From NCBI GenBank assembly GCA_041665545.1, contig JBAYIQ010000002.1:66369-130368 (forward strand): DNA of 64,000 bases, in the 5' to 3' direction. The notes beneath the pieces are model-generated. The model ran no database searches, had not been told where the DNA came from, and worked only from the letters and a program-made list of their open reading frames with translations. The translations under genes and the position numbers were made by a program. Origin of the DNA: Patescibacteria group bacterium. Its GTDB lineage: Bacteria > Patescibacteriota > Patescibacteriia > UBA1558 > GWA2-36-10. Below, in pieces: positions 6,838 through 39,475 of this stretch (its first letter is position 1; each line of letters opens with the position of its first letter).

Positions 6838-6890
6838 TCTCGTGTCCCTCGACTTGGTTCGACTTCGCTCACCACAGGTCACTCGGGACA
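6838..6890. repeat. About 50 bp GC-rich repeat (cctcgacttggttcgacttcgctcaccacaggtc...), copy 1. Copy 2 is at 10331-10385. Flanked by permuted ccatgagcga segments and tRNA 3'-end-like sequence.
   Basis: Near-identical strings seen at both loci, with substitutions t/a, g/a, a/g. Both lie immediately on the 3' side of minus-strand tRNA genes. Confidence 0.6.
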
Positions 6891-6978
6891 TTCGACTCCT
6901 TCGAGTGGTCGAAGACCATGAGCGAGCAAAACGAGTCGTTTATGGCGCGCCATAAACCTGAGCGTAGCGAATGATTTA

Positions 6979-7192: not shown

Positions 7193-7870
7193 CTAGCAAT
7201 CGGAACTGGGATGATAGTCGATGATCTCGGCCAGGCGGAAGCCAACATGGACTTTCCGGCACCACGGCCACATCCGATCCCAGTACTCGTGACAGAGTTC
7301 GGTCAGGACCTGGCGCTGACGGCGGAGCTTTGCCAGCTCCTCGGGCACTTCGTTGACCTGCTTGGTCAACGCCTCCACCTGAGCTCGCAGGTCATCGTTC
7401 ACACCCTGCAGGCGGACATTGTCCGCGAGCAACTGCTGCCACGACGTACCATCCTGAGGACCCTCATAGCTATCCTCAGGGAGAGGGCGGATACTGCCGA
7501 CCTTGATCTGATGAAAGAGCTCACACAGATCATCGAGGTTCTTGGCGGTCAACTTGATGCACAGGCAATTATTTTTGCCCGAGCTTTCCGGACTCACCTC
7601 CGCCCGAGCGGTCTTGAGCCGGTAGACACCCCACTCACGAGCGTTGTAGACTGGGACAAACTCGATCACACTGATCTCCTCGACGACGCCTTTCAACACT
7701 TTCGGTATCTGATCACCGAGATTGATCTTGGTATACCAGCGGCCATCGTCCAGGTAAAGAGTGATGCCTTGGTCCGGAATACCCCTCTTGGGACTTCCGT
7801 CACCGTTCTTTAGATCCGCGAAGCCTGTCACGTTCTTGACTTCGTCGCTCAAATACACTCGTCCTGACAT
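7193..7870 (-). CDS. Hypothetical protein encoded in a GC-rich (about 58 % GC) islet next to tRNA-Arg, probably horizontally acquired
   Basis: ORF 7193..7888. The likely start is the second Met (MSGRVYLSDEV...), preceded by gaaggag. The C-terminal half is coiled-coil-like (LRAQVEALTKQVNEVPEELAKLRRQRQ). Composition contrasts sharply with the flanking AT-rich DNA. The opposite-strand ORF 7187..7813 is judged to be antisense. Confidence 0.5.
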   Translation of the reverse strand: MSGRVYLSDEVKNVTGFADLKNGDGSPKRGIPDQGITLYLDDGRWYTKINLGDQIPKVLKGVVEEISVIEFVPVYNAREWGVYRLKTARAEVSPESSGKNNCLCIKLTAKNLDDLCELFHQIKVGSIRPLPEDSYEGPQDGTSWQQLLADNVRLQGVNDDLRAQVEALTKQVNEVPEELAKLRRQRQVLTELCHEYWDRMWPWCRKVHVGFRLAEIIDYHPSSDC

Positions 7871-8069
7871 GTCTAACTCCTTCTTCATTGTCGCCCGGAT
7901 TCCGCCTAGCTTACTGGGCCAGTACGTTCCGTGGTCGACTGCTTGGAGCTTCTTGCCACCTTACCAGCATTACTGGCAAAGTATATAATAATAGCATATA
8001 TAATGATTTTTGTCAACAATAAAACAGTCATATTTTACGGCTGTTTTTTACAAAAATTTAACGAAAAAC

Positions 8070-9719: not shown

Positions 9720-10190
9720 ATGCTACTGCGCGTGACTACCCACGGCCAACGCGTCATCTATCATGTTGTGAGTGCCACCCCATCCTATGAGGAGACCCGA
9801 ATCACTCTGCCGGCAGGCACCTACAATTTCCGAGATCACCCCAATCCTCTAAGATCGGATTGGGGCAAATGGCTGGTACTCGATGAATCAGAGCTACCGA
9901 AGCTAGGACTTGACTCTGATGCCATTGTTGGCATGAGTCACGAAGCCTTGATGTTCTGTGGTAGCCCTGCTTGTATCTCTAGCATGGCGATGGATATCGA
10001 AGACATCACACCGGTCATGGCTACTGTTCAGTCGGTGGTCACTGCCGAAGTGAAGACAGCGAAAATCATCCCCCTACCCGTTCGTCGCTATCCCGAGTTC
10101 ACGCGGAATGACCAGCCAAGAGGTCTCTACTGTGCCAGTCGCCACAGAAGATTCCTCAATCCAGCGGCTCGCCGCGAATGCCACGGCTGA
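9720..10190 (+). CDS. Hypothetical protein in a GC-rich islet (about 55 % GC) downstream of tRNA-Ser
   Basis: 156-aa ORF preceded by ttaaggagaaggt-ATG (strong SD). Followed by a canonical intrinsic terminator. No recognisable domain. Confidence 0.5.
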   Translation: MLLRVTTHGQRVIYHVVSATPSYEETRITLPAGTYNFRDHPNPLRSDWGKWLVLDESELPKLGLDSDAIVGMSHEALMFCGSPACISSMAMDIEDITPVMATVQSVVTAEVKTAKIIPLPVRRYPEFTRNDQPRGLYCASRHRRFLNPAARRECHG

Positions 10191-10256: not shown

Positions 10257-10330
10257 ACAAAAAAAATAGCCCGCCTGACTATAATAAAATTTTACCAAAT
10301 GGCCGAAGGCCATGAGCGAAGTTTTATGCC

Positions 10331-10385
10331 CCTCGACTTGGTTCGACTACGCTCACCACAAGTCGCTCAGGGCACTCGATTCATT
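10331..10385. repeat. Copy 2 of the about 50 bp cctcgacttggttcgact.cgctcaccaca repeat (see 6838-6890)
   Basis: Direct sequence comparison. Confidence 0.6.
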
Positions 10386-10460
10386 TACAGAAAATGGTCA
10401 AAGGGTTGATAAGCACCGGAGACCACGAGTGAGTCTTTTGCTTTGCAAAAGACGAATCGA

Positions 10461-10605
10461 GTGGTGCCGAAGGGGAGATTTGCCACCGCCCGCAGGCGGG
10501 GTCCCGCCCGTGGCGGGAAACTCCCATAAAATTTTATTGGTGCCGAAGAGAGGATTTGCCACCGCCTACGGCGGGGTCCCGCTTCGCGGGAAACCAATTT
10601 TTGTT
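10461..10605. repeat. Two tandem units, each a 20-nt copy of the tRNA-Leu 3' end (tggtgccgaagggg/agagagatttg) fused to a GC hairpin repeat (ccaccgcc-N-ggcggggtcccgcc-N-gcgggaaac). They abut the genuine tRNA-Leu 3' end.
   Basis: tggtgccgaagg..gatttg occurs at 10461, 10538 and 10606. Only the last continues into a full tRNA. The first two continue into gccaccgcc..ggcggggtcccgc..gcgggaaac. Confidence 0.7.
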
Positions 10606-10693
10606 TGGTGCCGAAGGGGAGATTTGAACTCCCACGATCTTGCGATCACATGGCTCTGAACCATGCGTGTCTACCAAGTTTCACCACTTCGGC
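10606..10693 (-). tRNA. tRNA-Leu (anticodon CAG), class II
   Basis: Reverse complement gccgaagtggtgaaacttggtagacacgcatggttcagagccatgtgatcgcaagatcgtgggagttcaaatctccccttcggcacca. Anticodon loop TTCAGAG, long variable arm, CCA encoded. Confidence 0.8.
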
Positions 10694-10735
10694 CTAAATA
10701 ATTAAAAATAATACCACTTTTAAATACAATTGGTG

Positions 10736-10762
10736 GACCGTGTCCCGCGACGCGGGACGACC
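10736..10762. repeat. GC hairpin gtcccgcgacgcgggac just 3' of tRNA-Ala (terminator-like, member of the cccgc-N4-gcggg family)
   Basis: Perfect 7-bp palindrome with a 3-4 nt loop. Confidence 0.5.
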
Positions 10763-10798
10763 TCCTATGAAAATGCCTGACACTCTCCTAATTTTGTT

Positions 10799-10872
10799 TG
10801 GTGGAGATGCGGGGAATTGAACCCCGAATTGGTCAATGCGAATGACCTGTTATACCGTTTAACTACATCCCC
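10799..10872 (-). tRNA. tRNA-Ala (anticodon CGC)
   Basis: Reverse complement ggggatgtagttaaacggtataacaggtcattcgcattgaccaattcggggttcaattccccgcatctccacca. G3:U70 pair in the acceptor stem (Ala identity). Anticodon loop TTCGCAT. CCA encoded. Confidence 0.8.
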
Positions 10873-11040
10873 CTAAATTTTGCCAACTGCTTGCCCTCCG
10901 AAGTCCGAAGGACGTAGGAGGGAGCTAACGGCCCTGAACTATTCGTCGCTTCGCTCCTAGAGTTTCGGGGCCTAAGCCCCATAACTTTCAAGCGAGCAAA
11001 ATAATTATAACTGGCTGCGTCAACCGAAGCTCCGAAGGAG

Positions 11041-11110
11041 CGAAGGTTGGTCGGGGTGGCGGGACTTGCCACCGCCTATGGCGGGGTCCCGCCCGCGGCG
11101 GGAAACCCAC
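11041..11110. repeat. Hairpin repeat unit (gacttgccaccgcctatggcggggtcccgcccgcggcgggaaaccc) preceded by a duplicated tRNA-Pro 3'-end fragment (ggtcggggtg)
   Basis: Same architecture as the units at 10461-10605. ggtcggggtg recurs at the real tRNA-Pro 3' end at 11151. Confidence 0.6.
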
Positions 11111-11149
11111 CAAAACTTTAACTAAATTTATTACTTTTATTTTGAAGAA

Positions 11150-11225
11150 TGGTCGGGGTGATCAGACTCGAACTGACGACCTCGGCGTCCCGAACGCCGC
11201 GCGCTACCAACTGCGCCACACCCCG
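11150..11225 (-). tRNA. tRNA-Pro (anticodon CGG)
   Basis: Reverse complement cggggtgtggcgcagttggtagcgcgcggcgttcgggacgccgaggtcgtcagttcgagtctgatcaccccgacca. Anticodon loop TTCGGGA. CCA encoded. Confidence 0.8.
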
Positions 11226-11479
11226 CCTACGCCAAGGCTTCGGCGGGCTTATAGCCCGTTAGCATTGACATACTTTATATTCAAACTTCTTGTCCTCCAA
11301 AGCTTTAGCGACGGAGGACATCACACTACTCCTCCTCGCTTCACTCGTCGTCGAGTTCACGGCACTGCCGTTTAGATAATTCTAGCAAATCCGACGGTTT
11401 TACTCAATAAAAAATCACCTTATAAGTGACGCTGTATAATACAATAAATAAACAATTTTGTAAATAAATATCTCCGACT

Positions 11480-11941
11480 TTATTTATTCAGAAAAAAATT
11501 AGCTAACAAATGAAAAGTAACAATTTTTGACATAAACAAAGCACCCAGCACAATTAACACTGCACCAAAAGCCGCGCTCCAAGTAAATTTTTCACCTAAA
11601 AAAATTATGGCCAAAACAAAAACAAAAACAATGCTCAGGCGATCAATGGCTGAGGCAGTCGAAGCTTGACCTTTTTGAATAGCATAAAAATAAAACAACC
11701 AAGACAGAGCTCCGGCAATACCACTCAAAAAAATAAAGAGTAGTGCTTTACCTTCTATGGTGTGTAGCAATGATGTTTTTTTCAAAGATAAAGAAACCAA
11801 AACCAAAAAGACAGCCATAATCACTGACCGCACTGTTGTAGCCAAAGTGCTATCAATATTTTTTAAGCCGATTTTACCAAAAATCGCAACTAGGGCTGCA
11901 AAGACGGCTGATAATAAAGCATAAATTATCCAAAGTGGCAT
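11480..11941 (-). CDS. Small DMT-superfamily (EamA-like) membrane transporter, half-size (4-5 TM)
   Basis: 153 aa, very hydrophobic. EamA-like segment FGKIGLKNIDSTLATTVRSVIMAVFLVL, and the C-terminal half repeats the pattern. Confidence 0.45.
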   Translation of the reverse strand: MPLWIIYALLSAVFAALVAIFGKIGLKNIDSTLATTVRSVIMAVFLVLVSLSLKKTSLLHTIEGKALLFIFLSGIAGALSWLFYFYAIQKGQASTASAIDRLSIVFVFVLAIIFLGEKFTWSAAFGAVLIVLGALFMSKIVTFHLLANFFLNK

Positions 11942-11959
11942 ATTTATTTTTTTAATTAA

Positions 11960-11998
11960 TTATTGGAGCAGGTGATCCCGCCGTTGGCGGGACGATCT
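11960..11998. repeat. GC hairpin gatcccgccgttggcgggacgatc (hairpin-repeat family), upstream of the EamA-like gene
   Basis: cccgcc-gttg-gcggg palindrome with extended gatc arms. Confidence 0.5.
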
Positions 11999-12045
11999 CT
12001 TGCCCCGCCTTGCCGAAGCCAATGCTCTTATTTAACATAATAATG

Positions 12046-12121
12046 TGGAGCGAGAGACGGGACTCGAACCCGCGATCTCTTCCTTGGGAAGGAAGCATTC
12101 TACCAGCTGAACTACTCTCGC
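12046..12121 (-). tRNA. tRNA-Gly (anticodon CCC)
   Basis: Reverse complement gcgagagtagttcagctggtagaatgcttccttcccaaggaagagatcgcgggttcgagtcccgtctctcgctcca. Anticodon loop TTCCCAA, discriminator U, CCA encoded. Confidence 0.8.
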
Positions 12122-12149
12122 ACAACCTTAAGTATTTTTAATTTTTAAT

Positions 12150-12197
12150 ACTGCCACGGCGAGGCAGGTTGGGAAGCAAGCATTCTACCAACTGAAC
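12150..12197 (-). pseudogene. Truncated tRNA-Gly-like fragment (acceptor 5' strand, D arm, anticodon 5' stem and loop only)
   Basis: Reverse complement gcgggcatagttcagttggtagaatgcttgcttcccaac matches the 5' half of the adjacent tRNA-Gly. The downstream sequence cannot complete the anticodon stem or T arm. Confidence 0.55.
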
Positions 12198-12209
12198 TAT
12201 GCCCGCCAA

Positions 12210-15789: not shown

Positions 15790-15890
15790 TAATTGGTCGT
15801 CCCGCTGGGACTCGCCACCGCCTCCCATTCGGGCCTGAGCCCTCAGGGCCGAAGGCTGGCGGGGTCCCGCCCACGGCGGGAAACCCGTCA
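15790..15890. repeat. Hairpin-repeat unit carrying an internal insertion (gactcgccaccgcc-tcccattcgggcctgagccctcagggccgaagg-ctggcggggtcccgcccacggcgggaaaccc)
   Basis: Same ccaccgcc ... ggcggggtcccgcc..ggcgggaaac cores as 10478-10527 and 11063-11109. The extra inner hairpin is gggcctgag-ccc-tcagggcc. Confidence 0.6.
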
Positions 15891-15946
15891 CACCCCCACT
15901 TTACCTGCCCGCCGAACTAAGCACTAAAATTATTTTATTAAAAAGT

Positions 15947-16030
15947 ATGGTGGGTATACCTGGACTTGAACCAGGGACCCCGACTTTATCCTCCTGCGCC
16001 TCGCTACTCTCGGCTACGGAGGACAGGTAA
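15947..16030 (-). pseudogene. Partial duplicate of tRNA-Ile: anticodon stem through the 3' end, with a 38-nt insertion in the anticodon loop. It lacks the acceptor 5' strand and D arm.
   Basis: Reverse complement cgactctta[cctgtcctccgtagccgagagtagcgaggcgcaggagga]taaagtcggggtccctggttcaagtccaggtatacccacca parallels the 3' two-thirds of the neighbouring tRNA-Ile. No 5' half is present upstream. Confidence 0.5.
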
Positions 16031-16056
16031 GAGTCGTGTTTATATGTATCCGCCGC

Positions 16057-16133
16057 TGGTGGGCATAGATGGACTTGAACCATCGACCCCGACTTTATAA
16101 GAGTCGTGCTCTAACCGACTGAGCTATATGCCC
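16057..16133 (-). tRNA. tRNA-Ile with genomic anticodon UAU (TAT)
   Basis: Reverse complement gggcatatagctcagtcggttagagcacgactcttataaagtcggggtcgatggttcaagtccatctatgcccacca. Anticodon stem cgact/agtcg, loop CTTATAA, discriminator A, CCA encoded. Confidence 0.75.
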
Positions 16134-38656: not shown

Positions 38657-39475
38657 ATGGACAAAACCTCGCTAAACAAATATCGACTATATCTAAAAAG
38701 TAAGGAGCTAAAAAATAGCACTGTCAAAAATTATTGCTGGCATGTACAACAGTTTTTACTATGGAGTGAAAATAAATCCGCCAGAGGCGGACCCGCCTTT
38801 GGCGGGAAAATTACTACCCTTATTTTAAAAAAATATAATGATTTTTTGCTAGCTAAACAAAAAAATATTGGTAGCATTAATCTGCGTTTTGTTATTCTCA
38901 ACAATTATTTAAGTTTTTTAAATATAAAATATTCCTTTACCCTACTTTCCCAAGAAAAAAATAGATTAAAAGCCATGGATCCAGTGCAACTGCAAAACTT
39001 TTTGGATCAGCCCTTGAAGAAAAAAAATTTATTGGGCTTCCGTGACAAGGCCTTGCTGGAAATATTGTATGTCAGTGGCTTGAAGGTCAGTGATTTGGTG
39101 AATATAAAAAAAGAACAAGTGGATTTTTTGAGCCGTGAGATTATTCTTAAAAATAAACACCTAAATCTACCACCTTATACTCTGCACTATTTAGAAAAAT
39201 ACTTAAATTTTCGCCGTGACAAAAATCCTTATTTATTTATCAACTTTGATCGCAGTAAAAAAGCGGGTGATACTCATTTGTCAGTCCGCTCTGTAGAACG
39301 CCTCATTGAAAAATACGCTTATGTCTTACGTCCACGGCTAAAAGTGACTCCCCAAATCTTACGCAACACCTTGGCTTACCAGCTCAAAATGCAAGGCACT
39401 AAAAATTTAGGAATTAAAGAGGCACTACATTTTAAAACAAAGGTAGCGGCTACTAATTATTTTAATAGATTATAA
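38657..39475 (+). CDS. Tyrosine recombinase / phage-integrase-family protein (XerC/XerD-like, possibly degenerate active site)
   Basis: N-terminal SAM-like core-binding domain (KNYCWHVQQFLLW...). C-terminal catalytic-domain pattern GLKVSDLVNIK...(R)...LRNTLAYQLKMQG..ALHF...ATNYF, compared with box II HxLRHTFAT..LL..G.DL..IQ.LLGH....TT.IYTHV. Here the His of HxxR is not conserved. A 30-nt GC hairpin of the dispersed family (ggcggacccgcctttggcgggaaa) is embedded in-frame at codons around SARGGPAFGGKIT. Confidence 0.6.
   Translation: MDKTSLNKYRLYLKSKELKNSTVKNYCWHVQQFLLWSENKSARGGPAFGGKITTLILKKYNDFLLAKQKNIGSINLRFVILNNYLSFLNIKYSFTLLSQEKNRLKAMDPVQLQNFLDQPLKKKNLLGFRDKALLEILYVSGLKVSDLVNIKKEQVDFLSREIILKNKHLNLPPYTLHYLEKYLNFRRDKNPYLFINFDRSKKAGDTHLSVRSVERLIEKYAYVLRPRLKVTPQILRNTLAYQLKMQGTKNLGIKEALHFKTKVAATNYFNRL

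Follow-up and report, generated by a model that had tools for sequence, protein, structure and literature searches.

Displaced tRNA gene copies split by a GC-rich double-hairpin element in a Patescibacteria tRNA cluster

Introduction

Phages T4 and T6 carry SegB, a free-standing GIY-YIG homing endonuclease encoded within the phage tRNA gene cluster. SegB recognises the segment from GGTTCRANTCC through to the CCA and cuts near the CCA end, leading to preferential inheritance and replacement of the tRNA region and to recombination-dependent tandem amplification of tRNA segments (PMC2330249, PMC13096335). Bacterial Slx1-like nucleases were formerly seen as vertically inherited housekeeping proteins (PMC1564403). 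Here we describe a double hairpin, element E, that splits displaced tRNA gene copies and in other genomes accompanies a GIY-YIG gene; phage SegB is the closest known system to this unit. The literature searched contained no prior description in Patescibacteria/CPR, which by itself does not prove absence.

REP/REPIN-RAYT, the IS200/IS605-derived palindromic elements (PATEs) and Rickettsia palindromic elements are non-coding hairpin repeats that lack terminal inverted repeats and target duplications and are mobilised in trans by a small enzyme of nuclease type. Rickettsia palindromic elements also insert in frame in genes. The double-hairpin elements of mitochondria, the GC clusters of yeast and the hairpin-forming repeats of sponges, with one or two hairpins, spread through their genomes; as reported by Paquin and colleagues in 2000, such elements insert in intergenic regions, at times within genes, and nest in one another.

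Results

The tRNA cluster and its displaced pieces

The window, that is, the whole 64-kb stretch analysed, comes from an AT-rich Patescibacteria chromosome. Separating full from partial tRNAs with ARAGORN and Rfam, a check of the kind proposed in an earlier note on this sequence, gave seven intact tRNAs; every one lies on the minus strand and has its CCA encoded (7/7 in each case). Among them are tRNA-Leu(CAG) (10606-10693; Rfam tRNA score 51.2 bits), tRNA-Ala(CGC) (10799-10872), which differs in allele type from its counterparts in relatives, tRNA-Pro(CGG) (11150-11225), tRNA-Gly(CCC) (12046-12121) and tRNA-Ile(UAU) (16057-16133). The cluster tRNAs are of the C34 or UAU type, and such isoacceptors are partly dispensable. 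Flanking ORFs encode a Lipoprotein_15 secreted-repeat protein, EamA, a glycosyltransferase and two proteins without a Pfam match, and further ones were read as an NRAMP transporter and an Mg-ATPase. At the Rfam 15 gathering threshold, the window and 15 further loci matched only tRNAs and RNase P, leaving element E without a match.

Partial tRNA copies adjoin tRNA-Leu (two copies), tRNA-Pro and tRNA-Ile, and the T-loop of each is split by E. The window pieces and units given below lie on the minus strand. As the earlier note had seen, the last 21 nt of tRNA-Leu recur twice. The distal piece (10462-10482) is identical to the gene 3′ end (21/21; blastn-short E-value 1e-6). The proximal piece (10538-10558), made up of the T-loop 3′ half, the T-stem 3′ half (CCTCT), the acceptor 3′ strand and the CCA, matches at 18/21 positions by eye and at 11/11 toward the CCA; its T-stem variant is that of the live tRNA-Leu in relative L017. 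Both copies run on, again as noted earlier, into the core ccaccgcc..ggcggggtcccgc..gcgggaaac, which occurs four times on one strand against 0.33 expected on both.

These cores belong to E, a double hairpin of 33-67 nt with the form TCCCGCC-n-GGCGGGA CCCCGCC-n-GGCGGTGG. The window copies have the two adjacent 7-bp GC hairpins that define the family, TCCCGCC-n3-5-GGCGGGA and CCCCGCC-n3-38-GGCGG(T)GG, and each of the four interrupts a T-loop at GTT^C(A/G)A(A/G)T. Thus, the association of fragments with hairpins in the earlier note was right, whereas the position assigned to the hairpins, the fragment end, was not: E sits inside the T-loop, exactly between T55 and C56. A T-stem 5′ half lies across E from the 3′ piece, giving GGGAG..CTCCC and GTGGG..CCCGC. 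With a covariance model built from 38 copies, the window's two Leu copies among them, the four window copies score about 47-58 bits (E-values 2e-11 to 1e-7).

The proximal Leu copy of E (10559-10591), at GTT^CAAAT, scores 47.2 bits (E-value 8e-9) and the distal copy (10483-10518) 54.8 bits. The distal copy is followed by GTT and the T-stem 5′ half GGGAG (10519-10525), complementary to CTCCC across E, and as DNA the distal unit is predicted to fold into two hairpins closed by the T stem (−18 kcal/mol). Together with GC-rich hairpin modules, it forms a 242-nt block (10295-10536) that has the direct repeat TAAAATTTTA at its two boundaries (10285-10294 and 10527-10536).

The displaced tRNA-Pro piece (11048-11068) shares its acceptor 3′ strand and CCA with the gene, and its T arm (GTGGG/CCCGC, loop ..CAAGT) is the one carried by tRNA-Pro in relative L155, a different allele. 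The tRNA-Pro 3′-end duplicate claimed earlier amounts to 11 nt (11048-11058); this is not significant alone (E-value 0.8), so the case rests on its context, the same E hairpins directly beyond. The Pro copy of E (11069-11103) scores 58.5 bits (E-value 2e-11). GTT and the T-stem 5′ half follow, and then a 38-nt AT-rich spacer (11104-11149 in all) homologous to the Pro-unit spacer in relative L159.

A fourth unit (15794-15890), missed by the earlier note, lies within a decayed tRNA-Ile copy (15794-15925) whose 3′ end (15794-15814) shares 96% identity with the tRNA-Ile(UAU) that is live in relative L016. Its T-loop holds E (15815-15881; 46.7 bits), itself with a nested 35-nt hairpin. The tRNA-Ile 3′ part noted earlier is also real (15948-15989, 37/42) and belongs to a second pseudo tRNA-Ile (15948-16052) that lacks a D arm and has an unrelated CCTCC..GGAGG hairpin in its anticodon loop.

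Other displaced pieces, from tRNA-Ala, tRNA-Gly and tRNA-Ile, bear different hairpins. Two had gone unnoticed: a tRNA-Ala 3′ piece (10731-10765; ..GGAGGTC[hairpin]ACGGTCCACCA; a covariance-model half-match), with a single hairpin (10742-10758) in place of the T arm and of the allele type of L159 and L016, and a tRNA-Gly 3′ piece (11964-12009; covariance model), where a single E-type hairpin (11976-11992) replaces the T arm. The tRNA-Gly 5′ half reported earlier was recovered (12169-12199, 29/31); with its adjoining hairpin it spans 12151-12207, and the half itself (12170-12207) ends in the anticodon loop. With the live tRNA-Gly of L017 it shares 97% identity, with the window's live gene only 87%. 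The supposed tRNA-Arg 3′-end duplicate near 6975 dissolved into chance 10-mers. A reading of the pieces as split or permuted tRNAs, or as T-loop introns, was rejected: no partner halves exist for the fragments, and an intact gene always adjoins.

Element E across genomes

The E family comprises >130 copies across public genomes and metagenomes. Their flanks define the target KTT^CRA, usually a loop in a tRNA gene copy: among 132 copies with unique flanks, T stands at −2 in 102 and C at +1 in 110. D-loops are targeted as well, and so are the anticodon loops of tRNA-Ser, these on the antisense strand. Nearly always, an intact gene for the tRNA concerned lies next to E. For 39 instances flanked by TT^CRA, the T-stem halves across E pair at 5/5 positions in nine, against 1.0 expected for such perfect pairing, and at 4/5 in three. 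Removing E in silico gives a callable tRNA in L014 and L019, each adjoined by an intact twin. The displaced fragments have a polarity, with 3′ copies downstream of the gene (20:2) and 5′ copies upstream (19:3), and tandem arrays of [3′ part + spacer + GTT + E] are seen.

No target-site duplication was found at the tRNA sites of E among the 132 copies with unique flanks. A candidate 7-nt duplication (16/132 against 1.2 expected) was rejected, since every case falls within a tandem array of heptamers, (CAATTTT)n for example, and the peak is absent at tRNA sites; we take it as a property of the target rather than of insertion. Lacking such duplication at tRNA sites, and with its two hairpins in direct order, E does not conform to a MITE. 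A role as an intrinsic terminator was rejected: no T tract follows E, and the terminator check did not flag E. A hammerhead-like reading of a conserved 20-nt loop variant (CTCTTTGATGAGAGA..) was dropped for want of helix II and of any Rfam match. The stems of E are nearly invariant in sequence and thus covariation is uninformative as evidence for an RNA. A phage origin was also rejected: only two viral contigs matched, both in GC-rich context and without a proper second hairpin.

A GIY-YIG nuclease gene is linked to E

GIY-YIG ORFs of 80-100 aa, of bacterial Slx1-like type, separate E from the intact tRNA at 21 E loci; in ∼17 of the 21, E lies ≤30 nt from the ORF start and the ORF end abuts the intact tRNA, frequencies that are biased since the loci were gathered by searching for E. 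When GIY-YIG homologues were chosen independently, the same arrangement of E, ORF and tRNA was found in 5/5. Hairpin sequence variants follow the divergence of the nuclease. The ORFs score 61 bits against Pfam GIY-YIG with the catalytic residues invariant, and their closest solved proteins are UPF0213 and SLX1. They consist of the catalytic domain only and lack a DNA-binding domain, and so do not share the SegB-like architecture of a catalytic domain with a DNA-binding region at its C-terminal side. By tblastn, no GIY-YIG ORF or remnant was found in the 64-kb window, spacers included. The nuclease link thus holds by family, not by locus, and the window units would be ORF-less relics or miniature copies mobilised in trans.

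Presence and absence in relatives

The comparison across related genomes suggested by the earlier note gave a divided answer: units including Pro and distal Leu are polymorphic, whereas the proximal Leu unit is kept in 6/6 relatives examined. The Pro unit is present in the window and in L159/L160 and absent in L016, L017, L153 and L155. In L159, the sequence after E is the ancestral tRNA-Pro 3′ end with its ancestral flank. The distal Leu unit and its 242 nt are missing from the closest relative, L153, where the proximal Leu copy of E is nearly identical. L153 also has the series tRNA-Ala, GIY-YIG gene, stub, variant double hairpin and tRNA-Ala fragment. tRNA alleles are replaced between close relatives. 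An apparent polymorphism among window-identical contigs was discarded; these are 100% identical and merely end at repeats.

Discussion

A proposed homing-type explanation and its rivals

The anatomy of E, its target preference, the fragment polarity, the presence or absence of units in relatives and the association between E and the nuclease gene are established. We consider it somewhat more likely than not that the displaced tRNA copies split by E, and the window units with them, are ORF-less relics or satellites of a homing-endonuclease-type element that targets tRNA loops. That E, in other genomes, travels with a minimal GIY-YIG gene inside tRNA genes argues for a homing-type selfish element and against integrase scars. 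The complete form, in other genomes, would be E plus a GIY-YIG gene of Slx1-like/UPF0213 type within a tRNA gene, laid out as [5′ fragment - E - short stub - nuclease ORF - intact tRNA] or, in mirror image, as [intact tRNA - ORF or short spacer - stub - E - 3′ fragment]. The nuclease may break DNA within tRNA loops or close beside them, or else where E forms its hairpins, and recombinational repair of the break could produce both the duplication and the replacement of tRNA alleles. The complete form comes with a long target duplication, covering 28-40 nt of the tRNA, so that one intact tRNA copy is always left, and disrupted copies would persist only if such a copy remains. Counting against the homing model, the intact copy retains an uninterrupted target, which leaves the immunity of filled alleles unexplained. 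Also against it stand the absence of a nuclease gene from the window, the missing DNA-binding domain of these nucleases along with the former view of them as housekeeping proteins, and the conservation of the proximal Leu unit.

The same layout could also arise, though we think this rather unlikely, from two unrelated processes: partial tandem duplication and allelic replacement of tRNAs, and a REP/MITE-like hairpin with a TT^CRA preference that lands in the spares. E would then be found in spare fragments because insertions into live genes are lethal, and the GIY-YIG gene would be another insert favouring the same sites. Partial tandem duplication alone yields the observed fragment polarity, and in L005 and L144 the spacer and unit are duplicated as one; yet the duplication boundary always falls just 5-14 nt past E on the intact-gene side, and the spacers in L006 and L159 are new DNA rather than copies of the tRNA downstream flank. 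Independence of the hairpin would fit the ∼half of fragments without this E variant and the E copies found elsewhere than at tRNAs: within (CAATTTT)n arrays, inside loops of other hairpins and, in frame, within a gene. It is harder to square with the short distance from E to the ORF start at most nuclease loci, the return of that arrangement in the independent samples and the parallel divergence of hairpins and nucleases. Selection for a function is less probable still. The unit would be part of the tRNA transcription unit, for instance as a structured 3′ trailer, a tRNA-end mimic for processing or stability, or a decoy for tRNA-end-binding enzymes or toxins. Units do lie on the same strand, 12-40 nt past the tRNA, and ahead of the terminator in L016 and L017, and the proximal Leu unit, in all six relatives, has a spacer that is homologous throughout, while its stems and its CTTCGGCACCA do not vary. 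For this one unit, function rather than selfishness could apply. The remaining units, however, are polymorphic, E is found in both orientations and in many settings other than tRNAs, and fragments decay and gain nested insertions (window 15815-15881, L016, L024). Stems are kept with a few compensatory changes, but this reflects sequence conservation rather than covariation, and neither an Rfam family nor a terminator signature goes with it.

The earlier note had taken the hairpins for inserted DNA, and this is supported, as is the reading of the tRNA pieces as displaced duplicates. It had ascribed them to repeated integration and excision at tRNA 3′ ends, which the insertion points do not support: they lie in T-loops (GTT^CRA) and also in D-loops and anticodon loops, the latter two on either strand, not at the 3′ end. 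On that account, tyrosine-integrase elements would have left attL/attR sites with the hairpins as island remains, a reading that is already largely refuted and that we regard as very unlikely. Direct repeats of the tRNA 3′ end do adjoin the gene, the downstream copy in L159 and L006 retains the ancestral flank in attR-like fashion, and a Campbell-type single crossover in the 21-nt repeat would formally give the layout. However, the mirror-image 5′ fragments upstream are as common as the 3′ fragments downstream (19 against 20), which recombination at 3′-end att sites does not predict. The repeats bracket 'islands' of only 12-40 nt, and the conserved insert, E, is in the T-loop of the distal repeat rather than between repeats. 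The window does hold a tyrosine recombinase gene (38657-39475), but it is Xer-like and 27 kb distant; no integrase gene is found among the cluster-adjacent ORFs, and no integrase family among 625 ORFs neighbouring the ∼130 E copies. Mis-joining of short repeats in metagenome assembly is hardly credible. Logan contigs that are independent of the window and identical to it break off within E and within tRNA-Pro, where assemblers evidently struggle, but the same arrangements recur in independent NCBI, JGI, ENA and Logan assemblies (L153, L159/L160, L016, L017 and dozens more).

Beyond the homing-type explanation, it is possible, although we hold this only tentatively, that E and its minimal Slx1-like GIY-YIG nuclease form a class of autonomous mobile element that has not been described before, very small at about 300-350 bp and finding its substrate via DNA structure. 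A nuclease without a DNA-binding domain might recognise extruded E hairpins or tRNA gene loops, invade tRNA genes and have its own damage mended by long target duplication. It might drive allelic turnover of tRNA genes in Patescibacteria and beyond, and the ORF-less E units of the window would be shed products. If this were true, it would explain the gene fragments and GC hairpins that litter tRNA loci of streamlined uncultivated bacteria, and the differing alleles of one tRNA in neighbouring strains. It would provide a cellular counterpart of phage SegB and give the widespread uncharacterised bacterial Slx1-like/UPF0213 nucleases a biological role, a selfish one on tRNA genes. It would also define a hairpin that is compact, conserved in sequence, precise in its insertion site and open to testing in vitro. 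In practice, E units break short-read assemblies and can mislead the annotation of tRNAs and att sites.

Comparison with known systems

Integrase-type tRNA integration (attL/attR) resembles the present units in that an intact tRNA is regenerated and a displaced 3′-part copy lies downstream; the units differ in having no integrase, an insert of tens of nt, E inside the repeat and mirror-image 5′ duplications. Another nuclease-gene insertion system shares target direct repeats of 30-50 bp and the lack of a transposase or integrase, but its nuclease is of a different class, and here the target is a tRNA gene with the hairpin on one repeat. Mitochondrial double-hairpin elements, yeast GC clusters and sponge repetitive hairpin-forming elements are likewise short GC-rich hairpins in AT-rich compact genomes. 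None of these has a sequence relation to E, which has a bacterial host, a KTT^CRA tRNA-loop target and a linked nuclease gene. From REP/REPIN-RAYT, PATE and Rickettsia palindromic elements, E would differ in having a GIY-YIG nuclease as its partner where those have an HUH/Y1 transposase, and in hairpins that are flush with the insertion point, two in direct order. An in-frame insertion in the window (38778-38807) resembles those of Rickettsia palindromic elements. With SegB, E shares a GIY-YIG gene among tRNA genes, and the segment recognised by SegB is the one duplicated here, its motif being split by E at GTT^C. SegB, however, has 221 aa including a DNA-binding part, whereas the E-linked proteins have 80-100 aa, only a catalytic domain, and belong to the Slx1-like/UPF0213 branch. 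The host is cellular (Patescibacteria) here and a phage there, the window itself lacks a nuclease gene, and the E-linked gene lies inside a duplicated tRNA gene together with a conserved double hairpin.

The tRNA cluster and its displaced pieces

The window is AT-rich chromosomal DNA (GC ~40%) encoding infB, rbfA, clpP, an Mg-ATPase and an NRAMP transporter. The proteins have their matches in Patescibacteria, and ENA contig ERZ27249449 k141_961522 is identical to the window. Seven intact tRNA genes were called by both ARAGORN and Rfam: Arg(CCG), Ser(CGA), Leu(CAG), Ala(CGC), Pro(CGG), Gly(CCC) and Ile(UAU). Every one lies on the minus strand and encodes its CCA. Six carry C34 and the remaining one is UAU. 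Because tRNAs of this sort are generally partly redundant with U34 isoacceptors, the cell could probably survive their disruption.

An earlier note had described partial tRNA copies here. The final 21 nt of tRNA-Leu do recur at 10462-10482 (21/21, E = 1e-6) and, with three changes, at 10538-10558, and a second copy of the final 11 nt of tRNA-Pro lies at 11048-11058. The tRNA-Gly 5' half (12169-12199) and the partial tRNA-Ile copy (15948-15989 plus 16028-16038) are also real, but the tRNA-Arg duplication is absent from its claimed place. Overlooked were a fourth unit (15794-15890) and 3' pieces of tRNA-Ala (10731-10765) and tRNA-Gly (11964-12009).

Other GC-rich sequences lie among the tRNAs. 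Two ORFs adjoining tRNAs (GC ~52%), at 7193-7888 (minus strand, 231 aa) and 9720-10190 (plus strand, 156 aa), gave no significant Pfam family; the latter has a homologue at the same position in the related locus L016 and a broken version in L017. A 59-nt module is present downstream of tRNA-Arg (6843-6901) and of the Leu units (10327-10385) at 85% identity, and its core was found in no other fetched locus. It is adjoined by strings resembling tRNA 3' ends (GGTCTTCGACCA; GGCCTTCGGCCA), and the junction CCA-CTCGAYTCG is also seen in two other loci, L003 and L022. Unrelated hairpin families occupy tRNA spacers (15990-16027, 10890-10925 and 11290-11320; CCTCC..GGAGG, CCCTCC..GGAGGG and TGTCCTCC..GGAGGACA), one such hairpin sitting in the anticodon loop of the pseudo tRNA-Ile.

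A double hairpin splits the T-loop

The hairpins had been thought to be fused to the fragment ends. Instead, the double-hairpin element E (33-67 nt) splits the T-loop, with T55 on one side of it and C56 on the other. In the sense orientation of the tRNA, a unit reads T-stem 5' half - GTT - [TCCCGCC-n-GGCGGGA][CCCCGCC-n-GGCGGTGG] - CRANT - T-stem 3' half - acceptor 3' strand - CCA. The repetition of the hairpin core GGCGGGGTCCCGC was borne out: it occurs four times, always on the same strand, where 0.33 matches would be expected over both. The T-stem halves are complementary across E in the distal Leu unit (10462-10525; GGGAG/CTCCC) and in the Pro unit (from 11048; GTGGG/CCCGC), the latter pairing being unlike the stem of the live tRNA-Pro, and in the predicted single-stranded DNA fold the T stem closes two hairpins. 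No T tract follows E, terminator prediction did not call it and no Rfam family matches it. Units of the form [3' part + spacer + GTT + E] are arrayed in tandem in the window (76 and 68 nt) and in the fetched loci L144 (three 87-nt units) and L005.

A covariance model found exactly four full copies of E in the window, all within the tRNA cluster. Further matches were two single-hairpin relics (10738-10759 and 11976-11994) and one variant (38778-38807). This variant, a 30-nt double hairpin (CCCGCCAAAGGCGGG TCCGCCTCTGGCGGA, minus strand), lies in frame within a tyrosine recombinase gene (38657-39475, plus strand, 272 aa), to which it contributes SARGGPAFGG; the Pfam SAM-like domain match ends at residue 41, the start of the insert. 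A parallel is seen in the palindromic elements that lie in frame in Rickettsia genes. Two independent short-read contigs, 100% identical to the window, stop within tRNA-Pro (11187) and the fourth E copy (15847); the tRNA/E repeats fragment short-read assemblies.

The E family and its target

Scanning one genome per species for the exact pattern gave 27 E loci, mostly in Patescibacteria MAGs (some labelled Gammaproteobacteria), the rest in Binatia and other groups. MAGs labelled 'uncultured Gammaproteobacteria' (L003, L006, L007, L017, L022 and L153; GenBank CAZILH01, CAYVXP01, CAYRIU01) share synteny with the window and encode proteins that match Patescibacteria; the label looks wrong. With flanks unconstrained, a metagenome scan gave at least 120 loci; viral contigs gave just two matches, both doubtful. 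Long-loop variants (L014, L015, L026, L008, L019, L101, L129 and others), which occur in Binatia and other non-Patescibacteria contigs, have conserved loops in the second hairpin, either 20 nt (CTCTTTGATGAGAGA(T/A)AAGT) or 38 nt with an inner CCAAGC-TTCG-GCTTGG hairpin.

Among the matches listed, 132 copies had unique flanks. The 5' flank ends KTT (T at -2 in 102/132) and the 3' flank begins with C (110/132), followed by R R. Besides T-loops, E occupies D-loops (AGTT^CAACGG, AGCT^CAGTTGG), anticodon loops of tRNA-Ser and tRNA-Pro on the antisense strand, loops of other hairpins and (CAATTTT)n arrays. No target duplication was found at tRNA sites, and a 7-nt duplication signal appeared at heptamer arrays only. 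Loci with E inside such tandem arrays include L037, L060, L100, L122, L142 and L145, some as [E + heptamer] x2.

At tRNAs, E occupies a spare copy, and an intact copy of the same tRNA nearly always lies alongside. When E was deleted in silico, L014 and L019 again yielded a tRNA call (Leu and Gly, respectively), and each has an intact twin nearby, at 74 and 25 nt. Around the 113 tRNAs in the collected loci, 3'-end copies lie downstream (20 versus 2 upstream) and 5'-end copies upstream (19 versus 3 downstream). On the intact-gene side of E, the displaced copy retains a stub of only 5-14 nt of tRNA sequence.

A minimal GIY-YIG nuclease gene accompanies E at other loci

Clustering of 625 ORFs located up to 1.5 kb from a copy of E yielded no integrase family and a single strongly recurrent one, an 80-100 aa protein found at 14 loci by clustering and 21 by tblastn. 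Pfam identifies it as a GIY-YIG nuclease (61 bits; cut-off 22.6); residues Y, Y, G, N and E never vary, and R and H are conserved in at least 90% of the sequences. At ~17 of these 21 loci no more than 30 nt separate E from the start of the ORF, whose end touches or overlaps an intact tRNA on the same strand. In L108, positions 1-35 of tRNA-Ser (matching the gene 35/35) are followed by E, AAAGC, 6 nt, the ORF and the intact tRNA-Ser, and a promoter-like TATAAT is seen only upstream of the fragment. L128, L059, L085 and L002 share this layout. Five homologues that were picked regardless of E, and are 54-71% identical to the L108 protein, have this architecture without exception, at tRNA-Ser(GGA) or tRNA-Glu, and variant hairpin sequences accompany the more distant homologues. 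A mirror-image form occurs in L153, the closest relative of the window (intact tRNA-Ala, 22 nt, GIY-YIG gene, GCTCAGTT, variant double hairpin, tRNA-Ala fragment), and L118 reads tRNA-Gly, ORF, 3' fragment.

Replacement of tRNA alleles

Relatives were loci sharing the order Ser-Leu-Ala-Pro-EamA-Gly-ATPase-Ile. Their EamA proteins are 96% (L153), 89% (L159, L160) and 87% (L155-157) identical to that of the window; L016 and L017 have ~80% nucleotide identity. The presence/absence polymorphism looked for by the earlier note holds for two units. The Pro unit is present in the window, L159 and L160 and absent from L016, L017, L153 and L155, and L153 lacks the distal Leu unit and GC-rich modules (242 nt, bounded by TAAAATTTTA). 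It does not hold for the proximal Leu unit (from 10538), which every recovered relative has, with a homologous spacer (ATAAAAT..TCT).

Leu T-stem variants are swapped between gene and fragment: the L017 gene has the stem of the window proximal fragment, and its fragment that of the window gene. In the L159 Pro unit, an L016-type 3' end directly follows E and precedes an L016-type flank (gtataattgtta), so that here incoming DNA ending at E has displaced the ancestral tRNA-Pro 3' end. The acceptor and T stems of live tRNA-Pro, Ile, Gly and Ala vary between close relatives, and displaced pieces in the window match those live alleles: the Gly 5' half that of L017 (97%), the Ile 3' end that of L016 (96%), the Pro T arm that of L155 and the Ala 3' end that of L159/L016. 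In this cluster, then, whole tRNA alleles are undergoing replacement, and the old ones remain as debris.

Interpretation

We lean towards reading the window units as ORF-less members or relics of a selfish element that targets tRNA loops. In its complete form this would comprise E and the minimal GIY-YIG nuclease, and insertion would bring a long tRNA duplication, leaving one copy intact. The nuclease steps of this model are inferred: the position of the cut, recognition of E or else of the uninterrupted loop, the escape of filled alleles from re-cutting and the formation of the duplication. No GIY-YIG ORF or remnant was found in the 64-kb window. The main rival, which we hold to be rather unlikely, is that E is an independent hairpin element landing in fragments left by ordinary partial duplications.

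That a unit is a functional tRNA-trailer or decoy RNA draws support from the conserved proximal Leu unit. The stems of E are nearly invariant across 121 distinct copies, which fits protein recognition or recent spread better than an RNA held by covariation. We judge a functional RNA improbable. The integrase-scar model of the tRNA 3'-end duplicates, which corresponds to the attachment-site reading in the earlier note, failed its defining tests and is very improbable.

Comparison with known systems

A profile search with the nuclease ranked the UPF0213 structures 1zg2 (E = 1e-12) and 1ywl (1e-10) first, then SLX1, a structure-specific endonuclease, and I-TevI weakly. Dunin-Horkawicz et al. placed both UPF0213 structures, 1ywl and 1zg2, among the minimal GIY-YIG domains of the bacterial Slx1-like type, a lineage that they saw as inherited mainly vertically (PMC1564403).

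SegB of phages T4/T6 is a GIY-YIG homing endonuclease whose gene lies within the phage tRNA cluster and which imposes its own tRNA region on progeny inheritance (PMC2330249, PMC13096335). Its 27-bp site begins GGTTCRANTCC and often ends at CCAR, the cut position (PMC2330249), and it leads to recombination-dependent tandem amplification of tRNA-containing segments (motif RAWTSGAAC; PMC13096335). The segment recognized by SegB is the one duplicated in the window units, and E splits the SegB core motif. In the literature searched, neither E nor minimal GIY-YIG genes embedded in tRNAs were found described for Patescibacteria, the nearest described systems being mitochondrial hairpin elements and SegB. 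We group E and its nuclease with homing-endonuclease genes on the one side and hairpin repeats on the other.
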